From: a virus
Taxonomy: Duplodnaviria > Heunggongvirae > Uroviricota > Caudoviricetes
DNA: 18,722 bases
IMG/VR virus record: IMGVR_UViG_2778261064_000025
Direction: 5' to 3' (one strand)
The stretch's first letter is position 1, and each line of letters starts with the position of its first letter. Positions 725 through 17,507 of the stretch are shown here, piece by piece. The position numbers and the translations under genes were made by a program. The notes beneath the pieces are model-generated. The model ran no database searches. It was given only the letters and a program-made list of their open reading frames with translations, and was not told the DNA's origin.

Positions 725-1012
725 TTACTGTCTCTGGCAATCTTTATCACGATAACGCCTGAAGTACCCTCTCGCTTCCTCATCCATACCAAGAGCCGAA
801 TGAGTCCGCTTAACTGCCTGTCTTAAATCTCCGAATCTGTCTGTAGTTGCTGGTGGGCGTGCCGCCTTACGGATACATTCAGAGCGTCTGTTTGCTGCAT
901 GTTCACGTTCTTTATCGCCATCTGCCAGCATCATGACTTCTGCCCATCGTGCGGCAGCTCTCCGGTATAGCCCTTTTGACTCCAGTTCTTCAGCTTTCCT
1001 GTCCCTTATCAT
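725..1012 (-). CDS. PerC-family transcriptional regulator-like protein (95 aa)
   Basis: ORF track 725..1012. The N-terminus MIRDRKAEELESKGLYRRAAARWAEVM resembles the PerC-family pattern (AE.LE..GL.RRAA.RW) as I recall it from prophage/island-encoded PerC/Pch homologues. Confidence 0.5.
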   Translation of the reverse strand: MIRDRKAEELESKGLYRRAAARWAEVMMLADGDKEREHAANRRSECIRKAARPPATTDRFGDLRQAVKRTHSALGMDEEARGYFRRYRDKDCQRQ

Positions 1013-1048: not shown

Positions 1049-1169
1049 GTTGGTTCAGTTGGTTCAGTTGGTTCAATTTGTAAAGATCGTTGTTTTTATT
1101 GTGTTTTTTCTGAAATATTGAACCAACATCAACTCATTTTGAACCAACACAGCCCAGCTCTGAACCAAC
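1049..1169. repeat. Iteron array L: GTTGGTTCA x3 in tandem (1049-1075) plus inverted TGAACCAAC x3 at 1119, 1140, 1161 (21-bp phasing)
   Basis: Counted directly in the sequence. The same 9-mer family recurs in mirrored arrangement at 9509-9619. Confidence 0.75.
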
Positions 1170-1222: not shown

Positions 1223-1253
1223 GTATAACAGTGTTATACAGTGGTATACTGTA
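1223..1253. promoter_or_regulatory. Adjacent palindromes GTATAACA-G-TGTTATAC (1223-1239) and TACAGT-GGTAT-ACTGTA (1237-1253), candidate operator upstream of the 1272 gene
   Basis: Inverted repeats read from the sequence, 20-50 bp upstream of the ORF start. No clean -35/-10 could be assigned. Confidence 0.35.
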
Positions 1254-1271
1254 TGGATATTACTCACTGAT

Positions 1272-1712
1272 ATGGTCTTTGCAATGAGCAAATCTAATCT
1301 GGTCGCGTTCCGCATCCCATCTGAATTGCAGGATGAGTTTAATCGGTCTGTTCTCGCTTCTGGAGGGGATAAAACCTCCTGGCTTGTTGATGCGATTCGC
1401 ATGAAGCTGGGACAGCCGGAAAAGTCTATTGATTCACGAATGCTTGGGCTGGTGGAGCGCATGGAAAAAGCCGCTGCGTCGCTTATTGCCGGAAAGCCGA
1501 ACATCCCACCAAAGCCATATAACGAAACGGCAGTTATAAAGATCATTGCCGATACCATCCGACAGGGATTTGATAATGGGCGTGTGATAGCGGAACGGCT
1601 CAATGAAGCAGGCTACCAAACAAAAGCTGGTAAAGCGTGGGATAAAGACATTTACAGCGCGTGGAAGCGTCAGGGTAACAATATTAAAAGAATCAATACG
1701 CTGCTTCAGTAA
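1272..1712 (+). CDS. Hypothetical DNA-binding protein (146 aa), possible ribbon-helix-helix N-terminus; alternative start at 1284 (MSKSNL)
   Basis: ORF track. The N-terminal segment VAFRIPSELQDEF...SWLVDAIRMKLG looks like a beta-strand plus helices of CopG/Arc-type proteins. The C-terminal IAERLNEAGYQTKAGKAWDKDIYSAWKR resembles recombinase-domain HTH segments. No obvious Shine-Dalgarno. The antisense ORF 1199..1603 looks like low-complexity junk. Confidence 0.5.
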   Translation: MVFAMSKSNLVAFRIPSELQDEFNRSVLASGGDKTSWLVDAIRMKLGQPEKSIDSRMLGLVERMEKAAASLIAGKPNIPPKPYNETAVIKIIADTIRQGFDNGRVIAERLNEAGYQTKAGKAWDKDIYSAWKRQGNNIKRINTLLQ

Positions 1713-2931: not shown

Positions 2932-3096
2932 ACAGGCTGTGTCAATAACTTTTACCTATTAATTGGGTAATTTCTACATTTTCCTATGCTGGCTAGTTTC
3001 TCTACTGAAAAGTTGGCACTCCTTAATCGCTTTTCGGTTAATACTATCGGTTTTCATATTGCCAGCAGCATACGCCATCCGATAATTTCTATGCTA

Positions 3097-3475
3097 CGCG
3101 CGCGTACTTGTCGCAAAATATCAGGCAAAGGCCAGATTCAGAAAGTCGTGATAACCACCAGCACAACATGAGAGGTCATGTAACGCGATTTATCACACCA
3201 GATACATGTGATTAGTGTACCCGCATAAAACATCGTCATAGCGCGTCCTGTGCGCATATACGCCGATAATCAACACATCACCACCACTCTGACTTATGTA
3301 GAGAACAGTTTTATGGTACTCCCCTCCATCGTGCGCGTACTGGTCGGACGTAGTTGCAAAATTTTTTGCAACTGATACCCCTCGCGCGCGTACTTGTCTC
3401 GAAATTGGTGTTTTGCTGTGGCAGTGATATCAGAAAAATCTTCCTGTTTCACATAAAGCGGATATGCGCGTACTG
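3097..3475. repeat. Four direct copies of GCGCGTACT (3100-3108, 3333-3341, 3386-3394, 3466-3474); copies 1 and 3 extend to ~20 nt (CGCGCGCGTACTTGTC.C.AAAT)
   Basis: Read from the sequence. The motif falls in different codon phases of the overlapping ORFs, so it is conserved at DNA level rather than protein level. Confidence 0.55.
3353..3372. repeat. 20-bp AT-rich palindrome GTTGCAAAA-TT-TTTTGCAAC
   Basis: Perfect inverted repeat read from the sequence, lying between repeat copies 2 and 3. Confidence 0.5.
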
Positions 3476-3589
3476 TAACGGCCCCATCAACTGGGAGCGG
3501 ATTTGAAATCCCGACCCAAGCTATGTACCAAATGCCATGTCTTGGATATATGATGATTGCCATTCTAAACAACGCTAAAGGGGGTTGGT

Positions 3590-4204
3590 GTGAGCAGAAA
3601 AGATACTAAAGAATTGCTAACTATCTGCATGGTGTACTTTTCAATTTATTTTTGTGCATACATGATAGTCCCAGATGAGTTTGAACATGGCAGTATTATT
3701 TATTCCATAACATTCTATTTTTTAGAGCTAACACCAATTTTGGCTATCCTTTTGGCAATACATATTTATTTTTCCTTAAAAAAAGAATCGACTAATTGGG
3801 AGAAGGTATGGAGAGACAGAGGATTTCTAACATCACCTAAAGATGATGCATATGAGAGTGATTTTTCTGACTTTATAACAAACTACTACTCCAGCGAACA
3901 ATTCAAAAATAGACTGTCTGATGTTTGGGAAACAGCAATGTATTCCATAGGGATTATATTATTGATACTTACTGGTATTGCTCAATATGTTTTTAACATT
4001 GACTTATCATTAAATCCTGAAAATTTAATATCGCCATTGATTTTTGGTGAGATATTGATCTTCTCATTCGGAATTTTCTTGAGTGTTGTTCTCTGCTCAT
4101 TATGCAAGCTACTGACTAACAGGTATCCAGGTGAAGCAAGGAGAGCAAGAAAGGCAAATCCATATTATCTTTTATTTCCTAATGGAGACAGCAGAGATAT
4201 CTAA
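3590..4204 (+). CDS. AT-rich multi-pass membrane protein (204 aa), unknown function
   Basis: ORF track. GTG start preceded by GGGGG about 6 nt upstream. Several hydrophobic helices (e.g. LLTICMVYFSIYFCAYMIV, LTPILAILLAIHIYF, AMYSIGIILLILTGIAQYVF, ILIFSFGIFLSVVLCSLC). Visibly lower GC than flanking genes. Convergent with the 701-aa gene. Confidence 0.6.
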   Translation: MSRKDTKELLTICMVYFSIYFCAYMIVPDEFEHGSIIYSITFYFLELTPILAILLAIHIYFSLKKESTNWEKVWRDRGFLTSPKDDAYESDFSDFITNYYSSEQFKNRLSDVWETAMYSIGIILLILTGIAQYVFNIDLSLNPENLISPLIFGEILIFSFGIFLSVVLCSLCKLLTNRYPGEARRARKANPYYLLFPNGDSRDI

Positions 4205-4223
4205 GCCATCCATGGCTAACCAG

Positions 4224-6329
4224 TTATTGAGCTTCTTTTTGTGATGCCTGTGCGACTCTGGTGAGCGATTGTGTGACCGTACTGATCGCTCTGTCATATG
4301 CTGTGCTACCTTTTGGCGTATTTGCCAGACGTAACAAGGCATTTCGTATAACAGGGCTTTCGTATGCCTTCGCTGCTCCGCCTACGGCACCAGCAGCAGG
4401 AACAACAAACGCAGCCGTTTTTAGCATCCCCGCTAATACTGCTGCGTTTATGATGCCACCACCAACTAACAAACCATAAAGCTGCTGACCATTTAAGTTT
4501 TGAACGTTCGCTTTTGCCGCGTGTCTTGTATCGTTGAGGTATTTAATAACGCCGTCCAGTTCCTTTCCATGTACGCCTTTAAAGAAAGTTGCTGATTGCT
4601 TCCTGTTCCGGTGTAACGCATTAATAAACTTCTCAACACTGATATTTCCAGACGGATCAGTCGCCTTATCTACAGCATTCTGAACTATGGCTGCTCGTGC
4701 GTTTTGCCTACCATTGTCATCCAGAAGCCTGTAAAGCTGAGAACGTTCTGATGGGTTTTGGCTAAAAACGAGTTTTGTTACATCCTCAGGCGTGGCCTTG
4801 CCGCTGGCTATTGCCTTTTGAACGCGCGTTCTTCCCATCATGTCATTAAATTTAGACCATGAGCGATCAACCCTTGCCATATTAATGGCTTCGTCTGCTC
4901 CAAGATTTTTGGCTACGGCTTTTTTCATATCCGCCGTATATGCCTTGTAGATAATATCGCTGGCTTTCTGGAGCGTATCTTTATCAACAGTGTCAGATGA
5001 CGCCATAAATCGCTTTCGAAGATCGGTTCTGTTTTCCCTCGCCAGACGCAGGTCATTTGGTCCGCTGGTGATATCGTCTTTAAATTGCTGCAAGACTTTT
5101 ACCGCGGCTCTATCCTGAGATTTGCCCGGGCGGCTTAACACGGCAATCTGATTGTCGATAGCTTTTACCGTGTTTGAGAGATCGACAGGGGTATCCCCCA
5201 TAGCGTCAATTATGCGGTTATATCGCTTTCCTGCTGCCTCAATGAATTTTTGTTGCCCTTTAGTCGCAGATTCATAAAGCTGTTTATCAGAAATGCCACC
5301 CAGACCATCGCTAAATGTTCTGACTAAATTTTCTCGTGCTTGTTGTTGATTCAGCCGATTCTTACCGGTTCCAAAAAAAGGAACTCTTTCGCCTAATGTC
5401 TGAGCCTGACTCTGCATAAAGGTTTTATCTTTTAGCATGTCACTGGTCATTAACGGCAGATTTCTTTCCGATGCAAAGTCGACAGCAGCCTTTGCTTCAG
5501 GCGACATATCACCACGAACAGCCCTCGAAACCGCACTCGCTGTATTTTCCAGCCCCTTACCAATACCACCAATGCCAGCAGAAATTACCGTTTGTAACGG
5601 ATCAATATCTTCTCCACCAGCAAGGCTAGTGGCTCCCTGTAGTGCTAAATCTGTAGCTGCTGATTTTCCTATGGCACCAAGCACCGTTCCAGCCCTGCCC
5701 GCTGGTGTAAACGCCAGCGCATTAGCCAGAAACGATGCCACGTCTTGCGGCGATAAACCCGGCTTGTTCAGAGCATAATCACCGGATGGCAGGGAAACGA
5801 TAGTGTTACCCTTCTCATCCTGCCTTAATTTCGCTCCCATGCTCTGAAGAATCTTTTCCTGAGATGCGTCAGAGCCGAAAAGTTGAGACCATCGAGCTTT
5901 TAGAGCATCCATGCTGAGTGAGGTTAACTCTGGGGCAAGGTCGACATTTTGCAGTCTCTCCATCTCTGGAGTCATTCGGCTTTCGCCTGTTATAGCATCG
6001 CGCATCGCAGCCCCAAGACTGGCTCCCTGTTCTGCTGAACGCTCAAGCCCCTCTCTTTGCTGAGTAGCTAACTTTGCATACCCTGACGCAAGAGAATTAT
6101 CAGATGATGTATGTTGAATATTTTGAGTTGCTGATTGGGATCGGTCTATTTCATTCGTTGATGGTAGTGGATAGGCAGCATAAAAAGCCTGCTTAGCCTG
6201 CTCTACACTTTCTCCGGCTTGCGGGGCCACGACTTCATTGAAGTATTGCTCCTGAGCCTGCGCTTTTTGTTCTGGTGCTAACGCCTGATACTGTGGAGAG
6301 GCGATAACATCTTTCCATGCTTTAGCCAT
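4224..6329 (-). CDS. Putative DNA-ejection (injection) protein, P22 gp16-like by size and position (701 aa)
   Basis: ORF track. Last gene of a four-gene translationally coupled operon (TAATG overlap at 6329). Ala/Gln-rich with a Gly-rich hydrophobic segment near the C-terminus (LYGLLVGGGIINAAVLAGML...). Assignment is by analogy to the P22 14-7-20-16 order; no search run. Confidence 0.5.
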   Translation of the reverse strand: MAKAWKDVIASPQYQALAPEQKAQAQEQYFNEVVAPQAGESVEQAKQAFYAAYPLPSTNEIDRSQSATQNIQHTSSDNSLASGYAKLATQQREGLERSAEQGASLGAAMRDAITGESRMTPEMERLQNVDLAPELTSLSMDALKARWSQLFGSDASQEKILQSMGAKLRQDEKGNTIVSLPSGDYALNKPGLSPQDVASFLANALAFTPAGRAGTVLGAIGKSAATDLALQGATSLAGGEDIDPLQTVISAGIGGIGKGLENTASAVSRAVRGDMSPEAKAAVDFASERNLPLMTSDMLKDKTFMQSQAQTLGERVPFFGTGKNRLNQQQARENLVRTFSDGLGGISDKQLYESATKGQQKFIEAAGKRYNRIIDAMGDTPVDLSNTVKAIDNQIAVLSRPGKSQDRAAVKVLQQFKDDITSGPNDLRLARENRTDLRKRFMASSDTVDKDTLQKASDIIYKAYTADMKKAVAKNLGADEAINMARVDRSWSKFNDMMGRTRVQKAIASGKATPEDVTKLVFSQNPSERSQLYRLLDDNGRQNARAAIVQNAVDKATDPSGNISVEKFINALHRNRKQSATFFKGVHGKELDGVIKYLNDTRHAAKANVQNLNGQQLYGLLVGGGIINAAVLAGMLKTAAFVVPAAGAVGGAAKAYESPVIRNALLRLANTPKGSTAYDRAISTVTQSLTRVAQASQKEAQ

Positions 6330-7750
6330 TAATCACCCCATAGTGAAGAAAAGTTACTGCTGGCTGCTGGCTGTGATACCTGCTCAGATTGCGGCAATGT
6401 CTGCGACGAAGAAGAAGTTCCTCTGTCAACTGCTGAAATAACCCGCAAAGCATCATAAGCTCGACCAGAAGCAGCTTTCAGCGAATTGAACTGGTTTTCC
6501 ATCTTCCGGCGCTTGGTATCAATGGTTTTTGTGGAATCACCAGGCTGAGGGAAATACATTTGATAATATTTGGACATTTCAGCTGGTACGATGGCTGCCC
6601 CTGTTTCCTGACGGAGTATTGCCATTATTGCGTCATTAGCATTAACAACGTATTGCTGTTCTGTTGGGCTGAGCGTTAAGTTAGCCAGCGTCCCATTACC
6701 CAAAGCATTATTAATGATCGCCACTCGCTGTGGGCTAAGCTGGTCTTTCAGTGTATCTATTGAATCAAGAGCATCCCTAACCCTGTATGCAAATCCAGCA
6801 GCTTTTTTAGCCCCTTCTGGCGACTTTTCCATGATCTTTTGGGCTGTTGGCAAAGCTATTGGACGAAACCCATCTCCAGATATTGGCTGGTTTAGTTTTC
6901 CCTGCTCTTCACTTCCGTCTGTGTAGTATTTTGTGACAGTGCCATCATCGTTTTCTCTAACACTCATTAATTTTTTGGCGTTTGTATTAATTCCAGCCGC
7001 TGCCGCAAATGCCGCCGCCCCCTCTGGATCCGCCTTTAACATTTGAGCGTACTGATTGTAATTCTGCATTGCTGCTGTTGGTGCATATGCTGACGTTAAC
7101 GCATTTGCTCGGCTAATATCCTGCCCTCTCGCCTGAAGTGCTTCGCCAGCCTGATTGCTGCGGATTGTTTCTGCCAACTTGCCACGCTCAATATCCCGAC
7201 CTTCCATTTGATCTTTGATATCGAAATACTTCTCATGACCGAGAGAAAACAGTGCCATACTACCAGCAAGCCGCTGGAACCCCTGTGGATCATTAACATG
7301 CATTTCGGCAACAGACTCAGGAGAAATTCCCAAGCGACGCATTTCATCTTCGTTATCTGCTATGAATTTTCCAAATGCCCCAGTTCCGAGCGAAGATGCG
7401 ATTTGAGCACTAGTCGCAAGATGACCAATAGAATTTCTCTGGTCGTCATCAATAAAGCCCATCCCTTTCTGAACGCTTTCAAATTCTTCTGGATACTCAG
7501 AAATAAGACTGCGCATTTTGTTTCTGTCTCCAGACTCAAAAGCCCCGGCATATGCTTTCTGAAACTCTGCTTTACGCTGTTGTTGACGTGCCGGCTGATT
7601 AATCTCAGCAACGCCTCTTAGCCCCTGTAGCGCCATTAAACCTACGTTTGGCTGCTGCTGATACTGCACAGGCTGAGGAACGGAAGAACGAGGAGCATTA
7701 TCATTTTGCGGTGCCATGCTAGGCAGCCCGCCAAGTTGCCATGTCGCCAT
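6329..7750 (-). CDS. Putative DNA-ejection protein, P22 gp20-like by size and position (473 aa)
   Basis: ORF track. TAATG start/stop overlaps at both ends. 473 aa compared with ~471 aa for P22 gp20 as I recall it. Gln-rich N-terminus. Confidence 0.5.
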   Translation of the reverse strand: MATWQLGGLPSMAPQNDNAPRSSVPQPVQYQQQPNVGLMALQGLRGVAEINQPARQQQRKAEFQKAYAGAFESGDRNKMRSLISEYPEEFESVQKGMGFIDDDQRNSIGHLATSAQIASSLGTGAFGKFIADNEDEMRRLGISPESVAEMHVNDPQGFQRLAGSMALFSLGHEKYFDIKDQMEGRDIERGKLAETIRSNQAGEALQARGQDISRANALTSAYAPTAAMQNYNQYAQMLKADPEGAAAFAAAAGINTNAKKLMSVRENDDGTVTKYYTDGSEEQGKLNQPISGDGFRPIALPTAQKIMEKSPEGAKKAAGFAYRVRDALDSIDTLKDQLSPQRVAIINNALGNGTLANLTLSPTEQQYVVNANDAIMAILRQETGAAIVPAEMSKYYQMYFPQPGDSTKTIDTKRRKMENQFNSLKAASGRAYDALRVISAVDRGTSSSSQTLPQSEQVSQPAASSNFSSLWGD

Positions 7751-8427
7751 TAGAATCCAAGCCCCCCAACAAGACCAATAAGCCCACCACCAATAGCGCC
7801 GGCCGCAGTTCCTATTCCAGGAACAACGGAACCAAGTTGCGCACCCGCTAAAGCGCCTGATGCTGCCCCACCAATACCACGCGCAAGACTGGATGGCTGC
7901 TGCGCCTGACCTGCACGAATAGCGCCAAGCCCCTGCAAGAGTTGTCCGGTATTATTGGCGTAGTTTTGCCCTGCCGTTGCCTGCCCTGATGCCGCATTCA
8001 TCCCGACATTTAGCAGGTTTCCATAATTTTGCATTTGCCCACTAAGCCAATTGTTATAAAGCATGGGCGCAATGGAAGATAACTGGTTACTGGTAGCTGT
8101 TGAGCCAAGCCCCCCGGTAGCTTCTGCTGAGACAAGGTTCTGATAACGGGCCTGATCTGCCTGTGTTTTATATAAACCAGAACCAAAGAAATCATTCGCG
8201 GCTTTATTCTGCCCTTCCAGAGTCATCAGTCCTTGTAGTTGTTGTAAAGCAGGCAATCCGACTTCTGCATACGGCTTGAGATTATTCATCACCGTATTCC
8301 ACTGCTCGCGCTGCAAATCAATTGCCTGCTGCTGGGCCTTCGCCTGAGCTTTAGAGGCACCACCATCACCGCCTTTTTCGTATACGGCACGATTGAGATG
8401 TTTATGAGCTATATGGGTAATTAACAT
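7750..8427 (-). CDS. Putative DNA-ejection protein, P22 gp7-like (225 aa)
   Basis: ORF track. N-terminal ...NRAVYEKGGDGGASKAQAKAQ resembles the P22 gp7 leader region (...PEKGGKGG...) as I recall it. C-terminal Gly-rich hydrophobic tail GIGTAAGAIGGGLIGLVGGLGF. 225 aa compared with 229 aa for gp7. Confidence 0.55.
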   Translation of the reverse strand: MLITHIAHKHLNRAVYEKGGDGGASKAQAKAQQQAIDLQREQWNTVMNNLKPYAEVGLPALQQLQGLMTLEGQNKAANDFFGSGLYKTQADQARYQNLVSAEATGGLGSTATSNQLSSIAPMLYNNWLSGQMQNYGNLLNVGMNAASGQATAGQNYANNTGQLLQGLGAIRAGQAQQPSSLARGIGGAASGALAGAQLGSVVPGIGTAAGAIGGGLIGLVGGLGF

Positions 8428-8882
8428 TCGCTGAATTCCTTATATTGTTGCCGAGTTAACTGATAAAGCGTTACGCCGACGGGTTTACCACATCTGATAT
8501 AAGCATCATCAAGGTGACCAACACGGGTAGCGCCAAGCAAACGGATAATTGCCCGTCCGTATTTCGTGGTGTCAGGAACCATAGTGATGCTGTTAAGGAA
8601 TGGTGAGTTTTCGAGAAGCCATTTGCAGAATAATCGATGTCCTTGCAGTGCATATTCACCACGGAATCCGGGGTCGTACACCGCATGGCATTCAACAACG
8701 CTATGCCAGAAGTTACGCACTTCATGAACGCCAGCCAGCACTAATCCTTCGTAGATGCCGAGATATACCGCATCAGGCTTGATGTAGTACGTGTGCCCCG
8801 GCTCAACAATATTTTCGGTATTGCCTGGCTCGTTAAGAAAGGCCTGTAATCGCACAGGGTTATCAATAAATTTTAGTTCCAT
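8421..8882 (-). CDS. Hypothetical protein (153 aa), position and size consistent with P22 gp14-like / DUF2824-type protein
   Basis: ORF track. First large gene of the operon; its stop overlaps the start of the next gene (ATGTTAA). Family assignment is from memory only. Confidence 0.45.
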   Translation of the reverse strand: MELKFIDNPVRLQAFLNEPGNTENIVEPGHTYYIKPDAVYLGIYEGLVLAGVHEVRNFWHSVVECHAVYDPGFRGEYALQGHRLFCKWLLENSPFLNSITMVPDTTKYGRAIIRLLGATRVGHLDDAYIRCGKPVGVTLYQLTRQQYKEFSEC

Positions 8883-8898
8883 GCGATGCCATCCATTT

Positions 8899-9060
8899 TC
8901 ACATACAGCCTGCCAGCGCCTTATCTATTAACCCTCGTGCAATTTCATGCAGAGTTGGCGCTACTCCAATTCCTGATTTTTTACGCTGCTCTTCCTGAAT
9001 TTTCTTTATCGCTTCCATTTGCTTCTCACTTATCAATACCGGCTTTACTGAAATAGCCAT
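8899..9060 (-). CDS. Small ORF (53 aa) MAISVKPVLISEKQMEAIKKIQEEQRKKSGIGVAPTLHEIARGLIDKALAGCM, possible small DNA-binding protein
   Basis: Hand-translated; below the 60-aa cutoff of the ORF track. ATG at 9058-9060 on the minus strand, preceded by GGGGG (plus-strand CCCCC 9065-9069). Ends 16 nt before the 153-aa gene. Confidence 0.45.
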   Translation of the reverse strand: MAISVKPVLISEKQMEAIKKIQEEQRKKSGIGVAPTLHEIARGLIDKALAGCM

Positions 9061-9073
9061 AACGCCCCCTTAG

Positions 9074-9099
9074 AACTGTATAAAACAACAGTTATTATA
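9074..9099 (-). promoter_or_regulatory. LexA-box-like CTGT-ATAAAACA-ACAG (9076-9091) immediately downstream of a perfect minus-strand -10 TATAAT (9094-9099)
   Basis: Read from the sequence. Matches the CTGT-N8-ACAG SOS-box pattern with an AT-rich spacer. The -35 is weak (TGAATA-like), so the promoter call is tentative. Confidence 0.4.
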
Positions 9100-9155
9100 G
9101 TTTCACAAATCGCAATATTCATCATCGTAATTGCAAAATATGAAACAAATAGCAC

Positions 9156-9187
9156 AAAAAAATGCCACCGCTCAGTAGCTGGTGGCA
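9156..9187 (-). terminator. Rho-independent terminator on the minus strand (stem TGCCACC/GGTGGCA with inner GCT/AGC pairs, followed by a 7-nt U-run)
   Basis: Plus-strand 9156-9187 reads AAAAAAA-TGCCACC-GCTCAGTAGCT-GGTGGCA. On the minus strand this is a hairpin followed by TTTTTTT. Lies downstream of the primase gene and iteron array, upstream of the 9094-9099 promoter. Confidence 0.55.
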
Positions 9188-9508
9188 TCGTTCTGTGTGT
9201 CAGGTTTTGACAGGTTTTTTATGGACTCTAAAAACTATATTTATGGTGTCGCATTACTCTTCACGGCAGGCGCTTTTCAGTTCTGCCCTTGCTTCTGGCT
9301 CCATTGGTAATTTGATTCGCGATCAGCTATGCGGATGGTTTGCTGAACAGGCATAACAACTTCTCAGAGGCTGTTTTCTGAACTACGAAAATTTCGTAGT
9401 GCTCACTTTCAAAAACGTCACGCCCTTGTACACAGGATTTTACGAAAGTCTCGTAAAACACTCTCTGATGCCAGCCAGGTGTTGTGCGCATCAATTCAGT
9501 CACATTGT

Positions 9509-9619
9509 GTTGGTTCAAAATACCGTGTTGTTGGTTCAGTGTTGGTTCAATAAAAAGAATAAAATCCTTATAAAACAATACTCTTTACAAATTGAACCAA
9601 CTGAACCAACTGAACCAAC
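9509..9619. repeat. Iteron array R: GTTGGTTCA at 9509, 9530, 9541 plus TGAACCAAC x3 in tandem (9593-9619); mirror image of array L
   Basis: Counted directly in the sequence. Immediately downstream of the primase-helicase stop (9645). Confidence 0.75.
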
Positions 9620-9644
9620 ACCTTTTCTACGCACATGAAGAAGC

Positions 9645-12404
9645 TCATTCTTCAGATGAGTTATAATCTCCTGGCTGGTAATTGAGTACATAAACGTTTA
9701 TTTGTCGTCCCTGAATACGTGGTGATTTTCTTTGGTATCCACGACCGCTGTTTGGTGGGGTTAGCATCCCGGCTTTTTTCAACACTTCAGCAAACTGTTT
9801 TGCGTTGAAACCACATGCGATCTCCTTTTCAAATGTGGCCGGGAATGTGTAGAAAATCATTGGGCTTTCGTCATGTTCTCCACGCTGACGGTATCCGGCT
9901 AAATCTTTGATGGGCAAATCTGCCGGGCTGTATGGAAATGGTGCAAAACGGCTAAGCCCATAGGCATTAAGAAATGCCTCCGTTTGTTCAATAATCTGCT
10001 GATGCTCTTTGTTACCTGTGCCGAACTCGCGCAACCATGCGTTATAGCTGTGCTGTATCGCATCACGGCATGTCTGAGCATCCCAGCCTGTTACAACCTC
10101 GCCTAACAACAATGCGGCCTCCAGAATGGCAAATCGCGCGGCTACACGGTGAACCTGCTCACCATAATCGGATGGGATCAGGCTTCTCCATCTGCTTTCG
10201 CAGTCGCGAACGGTTTTAATAGCCTGTTGCTGGTGGTCTGCCAGCCATTTAATCCACTCACGCCCGGACGCGCCGTGGTGATGCTGGTAAGCGTCTTTCA
10301 GTGCGTCTGCGTGCTGTTTTCCGTTCTGGTAATCGTGAAAGCGTACTGCTTTACTCAACGGAATATTCAGCAGTCGCACCAGTTGCCCGGCTTTGGTTTT
10401 TCGCCCGGAAGTAGCGATAAATGTTTCTAAATCCATTTCTCCGGTGCTGATTGCCACTGTACGCCAGCGTTTTAGATCCCGGTTTCCACCATCTTTAGCG
10501 CCTTGCAGTTTCCCTACACCGTTAAATAACGCATAGGCAGACTGTGAAACGCTGACAGGATCAGCGCCCTGACCAACTTCATCAAGCGGCATTAGTCCGT
10601 CATTGTGGGCGGCGGCCTCATTTGCCAGCCCCAGCGCGGTTCCGTACCACGTCAGCCGCAGTAAATCAGGGTTGCCGTATAAGCTGCTCGCCACGTTTGC
10701 CGTGGTGGTCTTACCTGCGCTCGACTGCTCATAGAAATGAATGCCGAACCCGTCAGCGCCCACCAGCCCAATCAATGGCGCTGCCAGTGCTGCGCCGATC
10801 CCGGTCATCATTGAATAGTTACCAAAGGCCAGACGCGCCACGTTATCACGCCAGCTTTTCGCGCTCCCTGAGACGGTATATCCGGCTGCGGCTGAGCTTC
10901 TCCCGCTGAACAGCACAGGATTTTCAGGTGTTCCGATGATTTCCCCATCAGGCATGATGTACGCTCCGCATTGCCAGCCAGTGGCATGAGCAACACGCCA
11001 CAATTCACGAGAGCCACTGCGTTGTAGCCAGTCTGCCAGTATTGCTCTGAGGCTGCTTTTGGTCGTGACATTTACCCCACCAGCTTTAAGTGTGCGCCAT
11101 CCTTCACGTTCACCAATATCAGCCAGTGGAATGGCAGCGGTTGTCGGCGTTTCAGAACCAAACGACAGCCAGCGAAGAATGAGATACTGGTCTTTATCGT
11201 CTCTGCCAGTACCGATAACGCTTAACGGAGAACATAACCAGCTTTCGTTATTGATGATTTCTCCACTCTGGCTGTCAGCTCTCGGAGATACCCAATAAAT
11301 ACCATCCTCGCGGCTTTCTATTCTTGGTTTCAGTGGGTCGGTATCCATAACCTTAAAATCGCTTCCCTCAATGGTCTGTGGCTCCTGTTTCACGCCATTA
11401 CCCTGTGGTTGGTACATTGACTTATTGAACGCTTCTGTGGCGCATTTAATGCCGTGTTTTTGGTGGTAATCATTCCAGTCTGCTTTGTGATCTGTCGGGG
11501 GTAATGCCACCCATCCAGAAACAGATAAAGCTGCTTTTTCTGCTGCTATTCTCCCCGTGTTTTGTCTTCCTTCGCTGTGGTCGTTATCCGCAGCAATGAT
11601 GATTTGTGCTGAAGGAAATTTATCCCGCAGTACCTGGGCGACATATAACAGGTTCCCGGCATCAATCGCCGCCACTGTCAGCGCCTCTGGACGAATTAAA
11701 TGGGCAGATAATGCCGTTGCCAGCCCTTCTGCGATTAAGATGCTCTGTGTTGTTTCTGGTGCGTTTATGGCGTGATATGCCCCCCGCTTTGCTGAACCTG
11801 TCAGGAGTCTTTTTTCACCATGTGAGGTAATAGTCTGTGCTGCTGTGACTGCGCCGGATTTATCCACCAGCGCCAGCAACAGAGATCCATCGGGCAACAC
11901 GGGGAATGTAAAATCACCTACCCCTTTCGCAACCAGATAATCAGATTTGCCGTTTACAGCCTTTCTGCGCATGTCATCAAACTGACGGGAAAACGTATCC
12001 CGTCTTTGTTGTTCGTCCTTCTCTGCCCTTTTCAGGCGCTCCTGTTCGCGTCGCTGGCGCTCGGTTTCCAGTTGTTCCCGTTTCTGGCTGGTGGCTTCTG
12101 GTGTTTCCGTTGTCCGGTAATCAATACCCAGAACATCAGCGGCAAGAAGCGCCGCCTCTGTTGTGTCGCAGTTATTTACGCGTTTAATTAAATCCAGCCC
12201 ATCACCAGCGCCGCACTGATTACAGATGAAGCTACCGCGCCCGTTGTCATCGAACCGGAATCGATCTTTGCCCCCACATGCAGGGCAGGGAGCATGACGG
12301 CGCGGAGAGTCAGGGACATTTATGTTCAGGCAGCCCAGCACATGAGGCCAGTTGTTTTCAGACGCACTGATAACCTGACGGATAAGATCAATGTTTCGCA
12401 TCAC
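9645..12404 (-). CDS. Primase-helicase, P4 alpha-like (zinc-binding primase N-terminus + TOPRIM + P-loop NTPase), 919 aa
   Basis: ORF track. N-terminal CPACGG...FICNQCGAG zinc-finger pairs, TOPRIM-like ILIAEGLATALS ... IIIAADNDHSEG, Walker-A-like SSAGKTT in the C-terminal half. Domain order typical of P4 alpha / D5-type island primases. Confidence 0.85.
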   Translation of the reverse strand: MMRNIDLIRQVISASENNWPHVLGCLNINVPDSPRRHAPCPACGGKDRFRFDDNGRGSFICNQCGAGDGLDLIKRVNNCDTTEAALLAADVLGIDYRTTETPEATSQKREQLETERQRREQERLKRAEKDEQQRRDTFSRQFDDMRRKAVNGKSDYLVAKGVGDFTFPVLPDGSLLLALVDKSGAVTAAQTITSHGEKRLLTGSAKRGAYHAINAPETTQSILIAEGLATALSAHLIRPEALTVAAIDAGNLLYVAQVLRDKFPSAQIIIAADNDHSEGRQNTGRIAAEKAALSVSGWVALPPTDHKADWNDYHQKHGIKCATEAFNKSMYQPQGNGVKQEPQTIEGSDFKVMDTDPLKPRIESREDGIYWVSPRADSQSGEIINNESWLCSPLSVIGTGRDDKDQYLILRWLSFGSETPTTAAIPLADIGEREGWRTLKAGGVNVTTKSSLRAILADWLQRSGSRELWRVAHATGWQCGAYIMPDGEIIGTPENPVLFSGRSSAAAGYTVSGSAKSWRDNVARLAFGNYSMMTGIGAALAAPLIGLVGADGFGIHFYEQSSAGKTTTANVASSLYGNPDLLRLTWYGTALGLANEAAAHNDGLMPLDEVGQGADPVSVSQSAYALFNGVGKLQGAKDGGNRDLKRWRTVAISTGEMDLETFIATSGRKTKAGQLVRLLNIPLSKAVRFHDYQNGKQHADALKDAYQHHHGASGREWIKWLADHQQQAIKTVRDCESRWRSLIPSDYGEQVHRVAARFAILEAALLLGEVVTGWDAQTCRDAIQHSYNAWLREFGTGNKEHQQIIEQTEAFLNAYGLSRFAPFPYSPADLPIKDLAGYRQRGEHDESPMIFYTFPATFEKEIACGFNAKQFAEVLKKAGMLTPPNSGRGYQRKSPRIQGRQINVYVLNYQPGDYNSSEE

Positions 12405-12759
12405 CGTACCCCACGTGGTCTATAGCGTTTGCGATATGGCTAACCAGCATCTGCCACTTGGTTATTCCGTAATCAGTCAGCATGCCATCATTGTTTAGCC
12501 ACATATCAAATTCAGCGGTTGTCGCAAGTTTCCACTTATCGCCGTGGACAGTCCTCATTGCTGGGTACATGAATGCGCAAATCAGATCACAAACATCTGA
12601 CGGCTTCAGAGATGTAGTAATGGTGCGTCCCTCTGGCGTCTGAATTGCCATTTTCTCTTCACCAGTAGAATGAAGGTTATGAATCCACACAGCACCAGCA
12701 ATCTTTGCCACCTGCTCTCCGATTGCGGAGCTAAGCGCCATTTCTGCATTTTCACGCAT
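12388..12759 (-). CDS. Hypothetical protein (123 aa)
   Basis: ORF track. ATG at 12757-12759 preceded by GGGAGG. 8-nt overlap with the upstream gene's stop; its own stop overlaps the primase start. Confidence 0.55.
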   Translation of the reverse strand: MRENAEMALSSAIGEQVAKIAGAVWIHNLHSTGEEKMAIQTPEGRTITTSLKPSDVCDLICAFMYPAMRTVHGDKWKLATTAEFDMWLNNDGMLTDYGITKWQMLVSHIANAIDHVGYGDAKH

Positions 12760-13093
12760 GAGAACCTCCCGCTACAGTTGCGCCCATGTCATTAACCATG
12801 CTTTGCCATATCTCACGCCCGACGTCAGTCAATCCGTCCTTAGTGACGCAACGCTCAAGAAGCTCGATCCCCACGGTTTCCCACTGCGGGTAGAACACTT
12901 TCATGGCTGCCAGTGTGTAGCTATCGATCAGGCTGCGAACGCCTTTTACTCCATTGACGATTTCCACACGTACGGCCTCGCCGTCCGCATCAACCATGAA
13001 ATAGTCCCCGCCGCTGGTGGAGGTAATGTGGTTATACAGTGCCGACGCATACTTATTTGCCAGCGCATTCAGTCGGAAATTTTTAGTAATCAT
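12752..13093 (-). CDS. Hypothetical protein (113 aa)
   Basis: ORF track. ATG at 13091-13093 with an upstream GAGG/GGAG; packed in the overlapping small-gene operon. Confidence 0.55.
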   Translation of the reverse strand: MITKNFRLNALANKYASALYNHITSTSGGDYFMVDADGEAVRVEIVNGVKGVRSLIDSYTLAAMKVFYPQWETVGIELLERCVTKDGLTDVGREIWQSMVNDMGATVAGGSHA

Positions 13094-13103
13094 GGCTCCA
13101 TCC

Positions 13104-13706
13104 TCAGTGCGTCACTGGTTCCGCTGGCATGCCGTTTTCATTCAGTTCAGCTATAAAGCTGTTGTGAAGTTCAGCAAGCGTTTCACGACCAAATGGAGTC
13201 AGTGCTCCTTGTTCCACATCCATCATGGCTCTGTAGAAAATGATGGCGCGTTCTGTGCCAGACTCGATGCCAAAACGTTCTATCATCGCGCCCTCAATGT
13301 TGTTTGCCATAGCGAGGCGCTCTGCTACTGGATACAGCGGCATGGCGACGATGCCGTTGGAATAAACAGCCACTTCGGAAGGATTGCCAGTATCATCAAT
13401 GATGCTGACAGTGCCGTTTTCCTCTCTCATTTCCAGCATGAATACTGTTGCGATCAGCCATCTCCACATAATGACGTTATGCTGTGATGTGTAATCGAAA
13501 TATCCCTGGTTGCCGCCATCGGCTATAGCGAGATGTATTGACATGCCTTCATCTGGTTTATCGTCATAATCCCCGGCATCCAGACGATTTACGGCATCAA
13601 TATATGAGACGGTCTCAACGCGTTCTGTCATGCCATCGTTGCTGCGGTGCATGATGTTTACGCCGTCAGGCGTTGCTTCTGCATGGAAAGTTAAGAAATT
13701 ATTCAT
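13104..13706 (-). CDS. Hypothetical protein (~200 aa from ATG 13704-13706; ORF track extends to 13811)
   Basis: The internal ATG at 13704-13706 is preceded by AGGCGAGG and overlaps the upstream gene's stop by 8 nt, matching the coupling pattern of its neighbours. The longer 235-aa reading is possible. Confidence 0.5.
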   Translation of the reverse strand: MNNFLTFHAEATPDGVNIMHRSNDGMTERVETVSYIDAVNRLDAGDYDDKPDEGMSIHLAIADGGNQGYFDYTSQHNVIMWRWLIATVFMLEMREENGTVSIIDDTGNPSEVAVYSNGIVAMPLYPVAERLAMANNIEGAMIERFGIESGTERAIIFYRAMMDVEQGALTPFGRETLAELHNSFIAELNENGMPAEPVTH

Positions 13707-13920
13707 GTTTCGCCTCGCCTGAATGATTCTGTAACTCATATTTGCCCAACAATTCGTCTGCTTCCTGAATAGCTTCTGGTACGCCATTGAGCAGTGACAT
13801 AACCGCGCCAATCATTAACTTGTCTCTGTTGCTGGGGCTGGCCCCTTCAAGCCAGAACCCTAAAACAGTCTGAACCTGTTCGATGCGACATTGCGCTTCA
13901 ATGAGCTGGATGTTGGTCAT
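13699..13920 (-). CDS. Hypothetical small protein (73 aa)
   Basis: ORF track. ATGA start/stop overlap with the upstream gene at 13917-13920. Confidence 0.5.
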   Translation of the reverse strand: MTNIQLIEAQCRIEQVQTVLGFWLEGASPSNRDKLMIGAVMSLLNGVPEAIQEADELLGKYELQNHSGEAKHE

Positions 13921-14180
13921 TTCGCACTCTCCGCATCGATTAAACTGATATCTATCAGAGAGGTAACTTTTTGTAGCCAGCTAGTGATTACTGTCGCCTG
14001 TTCCCCTCCCACCGATGGAAGAATCTCATTCATCACATGAACCAGACCTGTGCGCGCTCTGGTAAGCCGTTCAGTCGTGCGATCTGCAAGAGTGAATGTG
14101 TCTGGATATGGCTCTTCACGGCTCAGCAATGATTCAATTTCCAGCTCACACGGATGACGATAAATTAAGTTGATATTCAT
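13917..14180 (-). CDS. Hypothetical small protein (87 aa)
   Basis: ORF track. ATG at 14178-14180 preceded by GGGGG; ATGA overlap with the upstream gene. Confidence 0.55.
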   Translation of the reverse strand: MNINLIYRHPCELEIESLLSREEPYPDTFTLADRTTERLTRARTGLVHVMNEILPSVGGEQATVITSWLQKVTSLIDISLIDAESAK

Positions 14181-14371
14181 TTTTCACCCCCAAGAATTAC
14201 CAGCTCTGCACGGGCATCGTTAACCAAAGATGAGTACGCTTTAATCGCATCCACGACATCAGTAGCGTCCATTTCTTCAGCCGAAAGACTGACAGCAACC
14301 AGGACAGCCGCTGCTTGCTCGATTAATTGAAGTGCGGACGTAAGGCGAGGGGTATTAATTGAGTTATTCAT
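14177..14371 (-). CDS. Hypothetical small protein (64 aa)
   Basis: ORF track. ATG at 14369-14371 preceded by GGGGG; 8-nt overlap with the upstream ORF's stop. Confidence 0.55.
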   Translation of the reverse strand: MNNSINTPRLTSALQLIEQAAAVLVAVSLSAEEMDATDVVDAIKAYSSLVNDARAELVILGGEK

Positions 14372-15431
14372 TGGTTTCCCCCGTTTTTACTGGCATTTCG
14401 CCACCTTCCAGCAGGAAATGAACGTCACGAACGGCGAGATCCAATATCGCGAGTAACGCCTTCAGTCTTTCGTCTCGTGAGGGAGAGTTGCTCACCAGAA
14501 TGTCGTTAATCACTTCTGTCAGTGTGATGATCTGGCTTGTGCGTTCGAGGGGATCCATATGCACATCGTAGGTTTTAATCATGTGCCACCTCCATGCGGA
14601 TACGACCAGCAAAAAAGCAGACGTGATCGCGCACCAGAGAACGGCGAGCATCGCGTTCAGACTCGGCAGCAATATGATGAATTTTGGCGGTAATTGTCGG
14701 GCAATCGCGGCGAACTGCGGCGATAATCCAGATAAATTGCGGTTTTTGGGTAGGGGTAGTAGCCAGCATGTGGCAGCCTCCATTCGATAGCATGTAACGC
14801 TACCACCGGAAACGCCAATTTCGCTGGTGGTAGCCCAGACAGGGTTGGCGTAACCGGCTCGAATGGATACCGGCGCTTCCGAAGAAGCCCCTGCCTGAGC
14901 CACCATTGATTGACAAAGGCGCTGGATTATACACCAACGCCCAAAAAATGGGTGAGTCAGACCTACGACATAAAAAAAGACGCTCGGCGCGTCATATGTC
15001 GCCATTCGATTTACCAGGACGCCAATCCCGGCACCCGTTTTATGAGGTGCCTTATAACCATAAACCGTGTTGCCGCATAACGGCAAGCTCTTTTTTATGG
15101 ACTCCGAAAACTCACTATTGGAAGAACCAGAAGCACAGTACATCGCGCTCATTTCGTTAACGTCACGCGCGTGGACGAAGGTTTTTGTGGAGTCACTACG
15201 CGAGCAGAGAAAGCCATCTACGACCAGAAATTCTCTGGCGCAGCCGCTGACCTTCTCAACGCTAACACCATCGACCGTAATTTCTGACATAGTTAAGGCA
15301 TCCGCTCCTACCACCAGCAAATGATAAACTTTGCTTGTATCTGCTGTATTAATGCCTGACTTTGCTGTCATATTGCTGGATTTTGGCGACATACCAGCCA
15401 GTGAAAATGTCTTCTTCTGGGCGGTTAGCAT
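14364..15431 (-). CDS. Long ORF (355 codons), hypothetical; may instead be two genes, with a separate 72-aa product starting at ATG 14580-14582
   Basis: Continuous stop-free frame of 1068 nt. Start at 15429-15431 preceded by GGAGG and overlapping the DUF4222-like stop (ATGCTAA). A second in-frame ATG at 14580-14582 has its own GGAGG 6-7 nt upstream. The middle section translates to unconvincing sequence. Confidence 0.35.
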
Positions 15432-15607
15432 TTGTTAACCTCCGCGAACTCCTTCATGAAACGTGCCAGCGGTTGTACGCATGGCGATTGATACCCGTCG
15501 CGATAAAACGTCACTCGGTTGTGAGACACGCTTTCGACAGTAACGAGTGCTCCGTGGGCATCTTTGTAGCGTTTTTGAGGTTGTGGTGTTCCTGTCGGCT
15601 TAAACAT
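15425..15607 (-). CDS. Small conserved prophage protein, DUF4222-like (60 aa from ATG 15605-15607; ORF track extends to 15694)
   Basis: ATG at 15605-15607 immediately follows the upstream stop (15600-15602) and is preceded by GGAGG. Sequence MFKPTGTPQPQKRYKDAHGALVTVESVSHNRVTFYRDGYQSPCVQPLARF fits my recollection of the DUF4222 pattern. Confidence 0.5.
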   Translation of the reverse strand: MFKPTGTPQPQKRYKDAHGALVTVESVSHNRVTFYRDGYQSPCVQPLARFMKEFAEVNKC

Positions 15608-16433
15608 GGACCGCCTCCAGACGCTTAGCGAGCCAGCGTTGCGACAGGCGGGTGAGTTCTCCTTTGCGCTGCTCATATTCCATGCCCATATCAATTAACG
15701 TGATATTGGTGCTTTCGAGATATGAGAGGTGCTCAAGCTGTTCTGCGTTCATATGGTCGCGAGGTTCGCCAGAATAGCCATTTATCCGCGCCCACTGCTT
15801 AGCAGTTAGCCCACCAAGAACGATACGAGAAATCATATTGATCTCGTTTGTGTAGTGGTGTTGCTGCGTCGTTTTCCCCATCTCGGCACGGGCCATATTC
15901 AGCGCATCGCACATTGGCTTAAAGTTGTTTGCGGCACTGATACGGGCTTTTAGCTGGCGACGATAGCGGGCGGCGATTTCAGGCACGCTACGCTGTAATT
16001 CTTCCTCGCACTGGATGAAATAACGGCGGATAGCGCGCCCCTGATCATTGCGTTCGATCATTGCCAGTTCTTTCGCCATTCCGACACTTAACAGATAGTC
16101 TTTGCCGGGTCTTCCAGACTGCTTAATCTTGCTGTAAGCCGCGCCATTCGGGATTTTCCCCAAATTTGGGGAAATAGTTTTATGGACTGAGTAATCGTGC
16201 CCAATGGTGAAGTCATATTCAGAGATGCGATCAGTGATCCATGTAGAGAAGTCTTTTCCCACGCCCAACGCTTTGTGTAACGCTTTTGCGCTAACAATAT
16301 TGGTTTCACGCCCACCGATATGACCAGGAATAACCGGGACAATTGCGGCAAATTCATTACCGTTAATTGTGCCCAGAGAGGCGTTCAGATGAGGGGCAGC
16401 CTCAGAAATTAATCTGCTTTTTTCGATGTTCAT
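15600..16433 (-). CDS. Phage antirepressor-like protein (AntA/AntB-type domain), 277 aa
   Basis: ORF track. Segments NIVSAKALHKALGVGKDFSTWITDRISEYDF and DYLLSVGMAKELAMIERNDQGRAIRRYFIQCEEEL match antirepressor AntA/KilA-type domains as I recall them. Confidence 0.6.
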   Translation of the reverse strand: MNIEKSRLISEAAPHLNASLGTINGNEFAAIVPVIPGHIGGRETNIVSAKALHKALGVGKDFSTWITDRISEYDFTIGHDYSVHKTISPNLGKIPNGAAYSKIKQSGRPGKDYLLSVGMAKELAMIERNDQGRAIRRYFIQCEEELQRSVPEIAARYRRQLKARISAANNFKPMCDALNMARAEMGKTTQQHHYTNEINMISRIVLGGLTAKQWARINGYSGEPRDHMNAEQLEHLSYLESTNITLIDMGMEYEQRKGELTRLSQRWLAKRLEAVHV

Positions 16434-16445
16434 TTTCAGTCTCCG

Positions 16446-16877
16446 TTAGGCGGCGTTAAACGCGTCCGGGTAGAGTTTCAGAATGTCGGCAATTTCCTGC
16501 TGAGAAAGTCCGTTGTGATCATTTATGTTCGCAAGATGGTTAATATGAGTGATCACTTTCAGAACATCACCACGGCAGGAGAAACGGTAGCGAAGGTGTG
16601 TTCCGATACCATCAGGATTCTTTTCGTCGATACGCTCCAGAGTGATTCCGAGCTGGCGTTCTAACTCTGTTGCATAGTTACGACCAGAAGACAGACGGCA
16701 GTAGCGAAGAATGTCATTTTCTGTCCATCCCTCTATACCAGTACGCAGCATATAGACTCGGGCACGATGCTTTTTCGGCGTGCGCTTTGGTGCTTGAAGG
16801 GATTTTGTCAGGGGCGTAACATCAGATACGCGAATATCTGAATTAGCCGCCTGTAATGGGCGGTTTTTCTTTTCCAT
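16446..16877 (-). CDS. Hypothetical protein (143 aa), basic N-terminus
   Basis: ORF track. Start overlaps the AlpA stop by 1 nt (coupled). No family recognised. Confidence 0.55.
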   Translation of the reverse strand: MEKKNRPLQAANSDIRVSDVTPLTKSLQAPKRTPKKHRARVYMLRTGIEGWTENDILRYCRLSSGRNYATELERQLGITLERIDEKNPDGIGTHLRYRFSCRGDVLKVITHINHLANINDHNGLSQQEIADILKLYPDAFNAA

Positions 16878-17080
16878 CAGGCCACCTCGTCTCTAGATTC
16901 TAATATACACTTCTCAATCCATTCATCTATTTCAGACTCAACAAAAGCAATTGCCCGACTTCCAATTTTTACCTGTTTAGGGAACCTCCCCTGACTAATA
17001 AGACGATAAATCCATGCTTTGCTATAACCAGTTCGCCTTTGAACTTCAGAGAGACGAATTAATGAATTGTAATTAGCCAT
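16877..17080 (-). CDS. alpA: AlpA-family phage transcriptional regulator / excisionase-like DNA-binding protein (67 aa)
   Basis: ORF track. Pattern ...RTGYSKAWIYRLISQGRFPKQVKIGSRAIAFVESEIDEWI matches the AlpA/Xis-type HTH family. Sits one gene away from the P4-type integrase, as is typical. Confidence 0.8.
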   Translation of the reverse strand: MANYNSLIRLSEVQRRTGYSKAWIYRLISQGRFPKQVKIGSRAIAFVESEIDEWIEKCILESRDEVA

Positions 17081-17165
17081 TTATTAATATCCTGTACTAA
17101 TGACGCAATAACCCCCTCCTGCAACGAATGGCGAGAGTTTTATTTGCGTCAAATGTCGAATACGC

Positions 17166-17202
17166 CAAAGACCACAATATGAAAAACATATTGCGGTCTT
17201 TT
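17166..17202. promoter_or_regulatory. Inverted repeat / hairpin CAAAGACCACAATATG-aaaaa-CATATTGCGGTCTTTT in the int-alpA intergenic region
   Basis: About 15-bp arms with one mismatch, followed by TTTT on the plus strand. Could be a plus-strand terminator or a protein-binding site. Confidence 0.3.
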
Positions 17203-17507
17203 ATAAAAGATAGTCAGATTGTTTTGGTTTGTTTGCTCCACAAGGGTAGAGCTACCCTGCATTTCGGCAGGATCACGCTATTAGGCGTGACATCCAGTAG
17301 TTTTAAAGAACAATTGCGCTTTGTCAGCGCCAAAGCCTGTTAAAGAACATTCCGCTTTTCAGCAGCGTAGAAGGCTCAATACACCTTCGTTTATAAAAGA
17401 GCGATTGCCCTTCTCCAGGGCTAACTGTTAAATAGCAATCCTCTGTGAGTTTTTATCAATCTACTCCCCTATACTTTAGTAAACCTCTGTATACTTGTCC
17501 AGTTGTT

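Follow-up and report, generated by a model that had tools for sequence, protein, structure and literature searches.

Which protein occupies the short array of repeats at positions 1049–1169, and what its binding would serve, are the questions raised by this locus. The earlier note had proposed a replication or copy-number control array and had offered the adjacent 146-aa protein as a possible binder. In the window (the whole stretch of 18,722 nucleotides that was analyzed), sequence reading and repeat tools revealed three head-to-tail copies of the 9-mer GTTGGTTCA that are followed, across an A+T-rich spacer, by three inverted copies reading TGAACCAAC on the plus strand (Table 1). All six copies are exact, and the inverted ones start at 1119, 1140, and 1161, that is, 21 and 21 bp apart, just as the earlier note had read them. 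It had also placed the array correctly, in the divergent intergenic region between the PerC gene and the 146-aa ORF. The window contains 12 exact copies of the 9-mer, all within 1049–1169 and 9509–9619, compared with ~0.14 copies calculated for a random 9-mer. With up to one mismatch allowed, 20 matches were counted against 4.3 ± 2.2 expected, and none of 200 shuffles reached 20, which excludes a chance origin of the repeats. An RNA gene at the array was rejected as well, since no Rfam family was found at either array and the hairpin potential of the single strand (z = −4.1) follows from the inverted orientation of the iterons. Consensus scans of both intergenic regions found no sigma-70-like promoter, neither array unit contains a DnaA box, and the scan for host-factor sites returned one weak IHF-like match in array 2 and one GATC in the array 1 spacer. 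The lack of such sites counts against an origin at the arrays. The motif CTGGCTGGCA flanks both units but is generally enriched across the window. A search of the phage collection gave no match to the array region.

Table 1. Positions of the repeat units and of the genes and sites discussed with them, in window coordinates.
Feature	Position	Strand	Basis or remark
Array 1, tandem iterons, three head-to-tail GTTGGTTCA	1049..1075 (starts 1049, 1058, 1067)	+	Sequence, repeat tools
Array 1, spacer, 43 bp, A+T-rich, candidate melting region	1076..1118	.	79% A+T vs 53% in the window
Array 1, inverted iterons, TGAACCAAC on + strand	1119..1169 (starts 1119, 1140, 1161)	-	Exact copies
Array 2, three spaced iterons	9509..9549 (starts 9509, 9530, 9541)	+	Motif scan
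Array 2, spacer, 43 bp, A+T-rich	9550..9592	.	84% A+T
Array 2, abutting iterons, three head-to-tail	9593..9619	-	End 25 nt from the Rep stop codon
Rep, 919-aa primase-helicase	9645..12404	-	Zn_Ribbon_Prim, Toprim_3, DUF927 (Pfam); DNA primase (PHROG)
RKSPRI codons, Rep residues 892–897	9714..9731	-	Translation checked; putative iteron-specificity determinant
PerC-family regulator gene	725..1012	-	Pfam PerC, E = 2.6e-33
Operator-like palindrome GTATAACAGTGTTATAC (1223–1239) and -10-like TATACT, upstream of 146-aa gene	1223..1249	+	Outside the iteron system
146-aa protein gene	1272..1712	+	Neighbor of array 1, not the proposed binder
AlpA	16877–17080		Pfam
Tyrosine integrase, P4-type	17508–18722		Right end of window; Pfam, PHROG

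On alignment, arrays 1 and 2 proved to be a single ~125-bp unit present twice in opposite orientation; the two copies match over 45 nucleotides in a row and have spacers of the same length. The unit consists of three abutting iterons, a 43-bp A+T-rich stretch, and three helically phased iterons pointing back toward it. Array 1 is separated from array 2 and the Rep stop codon by 8.3 kb of cargo genes, the 146-aa regulator gene among them. When a synthetic junction for an inversion of this cargo between the inverted arrays was searched in 5426 E. coli genomes, no record covered ≥80% of it.

By its sequence, the window is an EcCIMP1-like phage-inducible chromosomal island (PICI). Pfam identified int, alpA, and pri-rep, and ~11 kb of the window (7590–18722) are 98.2% identical to EcCIMP1 of E. 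coli MP1, an experimentally verified PICI of 19,963 bp that excises, circularizes, and is transduced upon induction of the P22-like phage Kapi1 (PMC11773190). From the right end leftward, the window encodes the integrase, AlpA, an AntA-family protein, an Ash-family protein and several small ORFs, Rep, P22-type genes, a SieA-like ORF, Abi_2, the 146-aa ORF, and PerC. In this arrangement, int, alpA, and pri-rep stand in PICI order, and the downstream PerC gene, oriented like Rep, points away from array 1. The insertion site, as determined in complete E. coli genomes, is tRNA-Thr (thrW) adjoining proA. EcCIMP1 (Pick et al. 2025, PMC11773190) has the thrW/proA site, Rep, and both arrays in common with the window, the arrays being located at equivalent positions (18393–18513 and 9853–9973), but it differs in a distal segment with alpA_1 in place of the 146-aa gene, in its PerC allele, and in its ejection-gene variant. 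The EcCIMP1 paper (PMC11773190) never uses the word iteron, and the phrase "origin of replication" is likewise absent from its text. No att-core repeat was found in locus L001 or at the left end of the window, and an apparent att-core match in locus L085 proved to be a 25-nt similarity between integrase N-termini and was discarded. Beyond the distal end of the island, positions 1–341 hold a truncated Ner-like ORF (1–141) and a C-terminal tyrosine integrase fragment (87–341), which look like remnants of a neighboring island, as described beside EcCIMP1.

The position of array 2 directly behind the rep gene points to Rep as the protein that reads the iterons. The helicase part of Rep matches PDB 8tch, a staphylococcal "Pathogenicity island protein" (E = 1.4e-11), as would be expected of a self-loading initiator of the SaPI type that has been joined to a P4-type primase. 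For comparison, we collected 80 loci with Rep relatives, one genome per species, 68 of which encode a full-length Rep ORF. In 58 of these 68 loci, the 380 bp that follow the Rep stop codon contain an iteron cluster, defined as four or more copies of one 8-mer. The repeat changes with the Rep lineage (GTTGGTTCA, GTTGTCTCA, GTCGGTTCA, GTTGTACCA, TGGGATAA, AGTGTGTC, and others), and P4-like loci (e.g. L047) show clusters of the P4 repeat TGTTCACC. Reps that are ~80% identical to that of the window, with the tail GRV-RE in place of RKSPRI, are accompanied by the iteron GTTGTCTCA, while the Morganella Rep (L028), which is 55% identical and keeps RKSPRV, is accompanied by GTTGGTTCA. Only seven of ~918 aligned columns separate GTTGGTTCA-type from GTTGTCTCA-type Reps, and five of the seven fall within the RKSPRI stretch. 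Across 436 Rep pairs that are at least 60% identical, residues 876–910 predicted a shared iteron with an AUC of 0.90, compared with 0.38–0.66 for all other 35-aa windows of the protein. The C-terminal tail of Rep therefore appears, from this covariation, to read the iterons, RKSPRI being the tail for GTTGGTTCA and GRV-RE the tail for GTTGTCTCA. The AlphaFold model of Rep (mean pLDDT 40) offered no usable model of the C-terminal domain.

Since array 1 carries the same 9-mer and the same unit design as array 2, it is most likely a Rep site too, with its iteron matched computationally to the cognate Rep allele through residues 892–897. We consider it likely that array 1 is a binding platform for the island's own Rep and one of two inverted copies of an origin unit. 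This reading is based on the occurrence of the same 9-mer in only two inverted clusters, one of which ends 25 nt 3' of the Rep stop; on the covariation of a six-residue Rep tail with the iteron, a double dissociation; and on the adjacency of both units, together with selectively conserved distal iterons, in the relatives described below. The suggestion that a protein binds these iterons is thus retained as a prediction, with the 919-aa Rep taking the place of the adjacent 146-aa protein. Likewise, the earlier proposal of a replication or copy-number locus gained support, as far as comparative sequence data go, in the form of iterons of a replication initiator: the 9-mer recurs 3' of the Rep gene, the Rep tail covaries with it, and its distal copies appear to be under purifying selection.

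One argument for the 146-aa protein is that the array lies within the divergent intergenic region in front of its gene. It could be imagined that the array is an operator or centromere-like array for this Arc/RHH-like protein, or for PerC, and controls the promoters that diverge toward PerC and the 146-aa gene; series of short repeats, with copies in either orientation, are frequent targets of RHH proteins. In five of six other split loci, moreover, the distal array abuts the operator of the 146-aa gene. The homologs of this protein form a family of ~143 aa that has no Pfam assignment, one member of which is named "Arc-like DNA binding domain protein" by one source. The N-terminus of the 146-aa protein shows a strand-helix-helix (Arc/RHH-like) pattern, and sub-threshold HTH_62/Recombinase Pfam matches were found at the C-terminus in 35 of 41 members. 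The C-terminus was confidently modeled, the N-terminus was not, no significant Foldseek match was found in the PDB, and a PDB sequence search returned nothing. Its identification as RgdR, a protein of 99 aa, was rejected. However, the family appears to possess an operator of its own. The palindrome GTATAACAGTGTTATAC, which the earlier note had also recognized upstream of the 1272 gene, is exact and unique in the window, and every locus of the 146-aa family carries one of two operator types beside a -10-like hexamer upstream of the gene. Proteins with the N-terminal strand SNLVAFR are paired with the palindrome GTATAACnnnGTTATAC (GTATAAC), as at 1223–1239, and those with SLSVTFR with GTCTTACnnnGTCTTAC (GTCTTAC direct repeats). 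The 146-aa protein thus most likely binds the 1223–1239 palindrome, judging from the covariation of this operator with its N-terminal strand. The iteron type, in contrast, is independent of the protein type: five different iteron types accompany the SNLVAFR type, and both protein types are found with the GTTGGTTCA iteron. The array design also recurs behind Rep genes where the 146-aa gene is missing from the locus, and EcCIMP1, which has no such gene, carries array 1. Taken together, a role of the array as operator or centromere for the 146-aa protein or PerC is highly improbable. As a separate observation, in the Cedecea davisae locus (L037; ~12995–13020 and 19640–19680), the 9-mer GTAAGACAG, a type-II operator half-site, lies beside the proximal and the distal unit, which hints that the 146-aa-family regulator may act at both origin units of that island.

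The earlier note had called it the second iteron array. Comparison with relatives indicates that it is no independent locus but one half of an origin, displaced here, whose two halves adjoin each other in most of them. Most relatives carry 10–12 iterons in one block of ~250–310 bp directly after rep. In the Morganella locus, for example, this block comprises two units (12801–12902 and 12972–13092) that are 70 bp apart and have the same relative orientation as those of the window, with the abutting triplets facing outward and the phased iterons inward. In unsplit relatives, the PerC gene follows the second origin unit. The two units are 6–9 kb apart in the window, EcCIMP1, E. coli SFE8, and loci from Lonsdalea, Chimaeribacter, Pantoea, Leclercia, and Cedecea. 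The split is shared by six other loci, from five to six genera, and in each of them one iteron type occupies both sites. Since gene orders differ among the split loci (PerC follows the distal unit here and the proximal unit in three others) and these loci fall in at least three Rep tail sub-types, the splitting probably happened more than once. Loci with a DUF5906, P4-like Rep (L083, L052, and L069) have their own iterons on either side of two small genes. Among the 19 informative GTTGGTTCA-type loci, three show, within 10 kb, the proximal unit alone, so that the second origin unit may be dispensable. A different arrangement was noted in Vitreoscilla stercoraria (L071, 12915–13617), where two iteron types are nested after one Rep gene, with TGGTTACA clusters outside and TGGGTACA clusters inside.

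As an inert duplicate, the distal unit would be a displaced origin half, or a leftover of island recombination, that hitch-hikes with the PerC/146-aa module and is homogenized by gene conversion. Both orphaning and conversion have left traces. In E. coli ETEC1721 (L083; 3077–3201, 11556–11660, and 12666–12770), array 1 is present in identical form alongside PerC, the 146-aa gene, and the cargo known from the window, but the Rep of this island is of another type, DUF5906. The left half of the island, from about window position 9460 onward, is replaced by a DUF5906 Rep module with different iterons (GGTACAGGT/CTGTACCAC), which are split by the two small genes. In this island, array 1 lies beside a non-cognate Rep, and the array can therefore travel with the distal module as an orphan, apparently a recent one. 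The origin region thus seems to be a recombination joint, with module exchange near window position 9460. In E. coli SFE8 (L084), all differences of the distal array (13350–13470) from the window lie outside the iterons, and its first inter-iteron tract, aacacggtattt, is the proximal-array version (compared with window 1119–1148 and 9509–9538), a swap that indicates gene conversion between the two inverted units. Relatives with only a proximal unit within 10 kb are also compatible with a useless distal copy. Nevertheless, in the distal arrays of seven genera, the iteron columns are 97% identical to the window, whereas all other columns are 59% identical, and gene conversion would even out whole tracts rather than the 9-mers alone. 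This pattern argues for selection on the 9-mers of the distal array themselves. The spacing is conserved as well: the distal arrays of relatives keep 21–22 bp, so that the phasing claimed for the window extends to them, and the spacer length is kept among the arrays of relatives while the sequence between iterons is free to vary. The proximal arrays of relatives are spaced by 11 and 21 bp, and that of EcCIMP1 by 21/21 bp; the spacing therefore changes in steps of about one helical turn. Other genera share the left part of the array 1 spacer (ATTTGTAAAGA..TTGTTTT) in their A and B arrays. Moreover, separated units are found in at least three sub-lineages of Rep, and the gene orders differ. An inert duplicate is, in our judgment, quite unlikely.

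Known replication systems offer comparisons for a Rep-bound distal origin unit. In Gram-negative PICIs, two iteron sets flank an A+T-rich region 3' of pri-rep, and Rep-driven maintenance of a plasmid depends on the EcCICFT073 origin (Fillol-Salom et al. 2018, PMC6092414). The window resembles SaPI and Gram-negative PICI origins in having two iteron sets around an A+T-rich region that are, by their covariation, probably specific to the island's Rep, and array 1 has this layout in full, with 3 + 3 exact iterons around a 43-bp, 79% A+T spacer. Only array 2 is positioned directly 3' of rep, as PICI origins are (25 nt), whereas array 1 is 8.3 kb away. Unlike the described PICI origins, the island of the window holds two units, inverted to each other, the one in array 1 lying behind cargo genes.

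The two-site layout would work like that of phage P4, whose annotated genome has crr (4291–4590) directly 3' of alpha and the ori repeats (9310–9413) 4.7 kb away, with type-1 repeats common to both. Like P4, the window is a satellite with a fused primase-helicase and two separated clusters of one iteron in cis, one of them directly 3' of the gene. In both, the units are built of abutting repeats, a spacer, and inverted repeats, and the initiator begins with an N-terminal Zn-ribbon/Toprim primase. The helicase of the window Rep, in contrast, is of the DUF927 (SaPI Rep-like) rather than the P4 type, and the C-terminal DNA-binding region of Rep has no detectable profile similarity to the origin-binding domain of P4 alpha (hhalign probability 0.5%). 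The iterons differ too (GTTGGTTCA in the window and TGTTCACC as the P4 type-1 iteron), and the sites of the window are inverted copies of one unit. With helicase, C-terminal domain, and iteron all different, the window falls outside the P4 system.

Auxiliary iteron arrays of plasmids (P1 incA; R6K gamma with alpha/beta) are distant initiator-binding repeats that act via DNA pairing or looping. Their initiator families differ from Rep, and the likeness consists in extra repeats away from the initiation site. The role of P1 incA is negative control, and R6K and RK2 use iteron pairing. By analogy with incA, which array 1 resembles in lying outside the Rep-proximal unit, the array might be a negative copy-control locus that binds Rep and restrains initiation by titration or by handcuffing with the proximal unit. 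The evidence for Rep binding serves this possibility as well as it serves a distal origin unit; array 1 lies outside the Rep-proximal position that defines PICI origins (PMC6092414), and inverted units with long identical stretches favor pairing. However, a quickly amplifying satellite has little obvious need for a brake, the homologous unit is an integral, adjacent part of the origin block in most relatives, and the second iteron site of P4 is annotated as required in cis for replication. A restraining role of array 1 is therefore unlikely.

For array 1 as a second origin unit, we propose the following mechanism. After induction by the helper phage and excision, the C-terminal tail of Rep (RKSPRI) would read the 9-bp iterons at both units. 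With the sites in helical phase, Rep would line up along a single side of the helix beside the A+T-rich stretch, which could then melt and let the DUF927 helicase load itself. The distal unit would work together with the proximal one in cis, whether by offering another place for loading or by looping through Rep, as the ori/crr pair of P4 does. Sequence comparison shows the repeats, their mirror-image partner, the covariation of Rep tail and iteron, and the selective conservation of the distal iterons; Rep binding, DNA melting, loop formation, and the direction in which replication is affected are inferences. A bolder extension, which we regard as possible but rather doubtful, is that the origin is made of two inverted units, each complete in itself, between which kilobases of cargo are tolerated or even favored, and that its center is a hotspot of cargo insertion. 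Such an origin would have been split repeatedly, in at least three DUF927 Rep sub-lineages and with the unrelated DUF5906/P4-like Rep of the three loci named above. In the excised circle, Rep might then bridge the units, linking the start of replication to the promoters of PerC and the 146-aa gene next to the distal unit.

Islands of the EcCIMP1 type occur widely in E. coli and its relatives, and at least one of them is a working satellite of a P22-like phage. The present analysis would locate the previously undescribed origin of these islands, which appears bipartite in layout, and the six named Rep residues amount to a testable protein–DNA recognition code that is open to residue swaps. Should the distal unit prove necessary in cis, the ori/crr principle of P4 would extend to PICIs with a SaPI-type helicase, and this need would also explain how accessory genes (ejection proteins, Abi, SieA-like, and PerC) can reside inside an origin that is not destroyed. 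If it is dispensable, the arrays still mark joints where islands exchange replication and cargo modules.

Several further features of the island were recorded. The cargo between the origin units (2963–8882) comprises a gp14-like DUF2824 protein, gp7, gp20, a gp16-like DNA transfer protein, a weak SieA-like ORF, and Abi_2. The gp14 (DUF2824), gp7, gp20, and gp16 proteins are P22 homologs, and a satellite of a P22-like helper here brings its own ejection-protein set; for EcCIMP1, island proteins similar to Kapi1 proteins were noted (PMC11773190). The non-coding DNA between the Abi gene and the SieA-like ORF contains direct repeats with CGCGCGCGTACTTGTC (3097–3119/3383–3405 and 3309–3398), which are also present in the ETEC1721 island. 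Two Rfam matches above the gathering score, C4 antisense RNA (14823–14910, minus strand, 79.5 bits) and isrK (14973–15050, minus strand, 67.1 bits), sit within the ORF called as Ash (14364–15431), beside the AntA-family gene, and an Icd-like gene is annotated in the corresponding region of EcCIMP1. This C4/isrK/Ash/AntA region looks like a P1/P7 c4-icd-ant-like immunity module in a PICI. Lastly, the interval between alpA and int contains a palindrome and two copies of TC(T/G)TTTATAAAAGA (17182–17225, 17197–17210, and 17387–17400), which are candidate AlpA or integrase arm-type sites.
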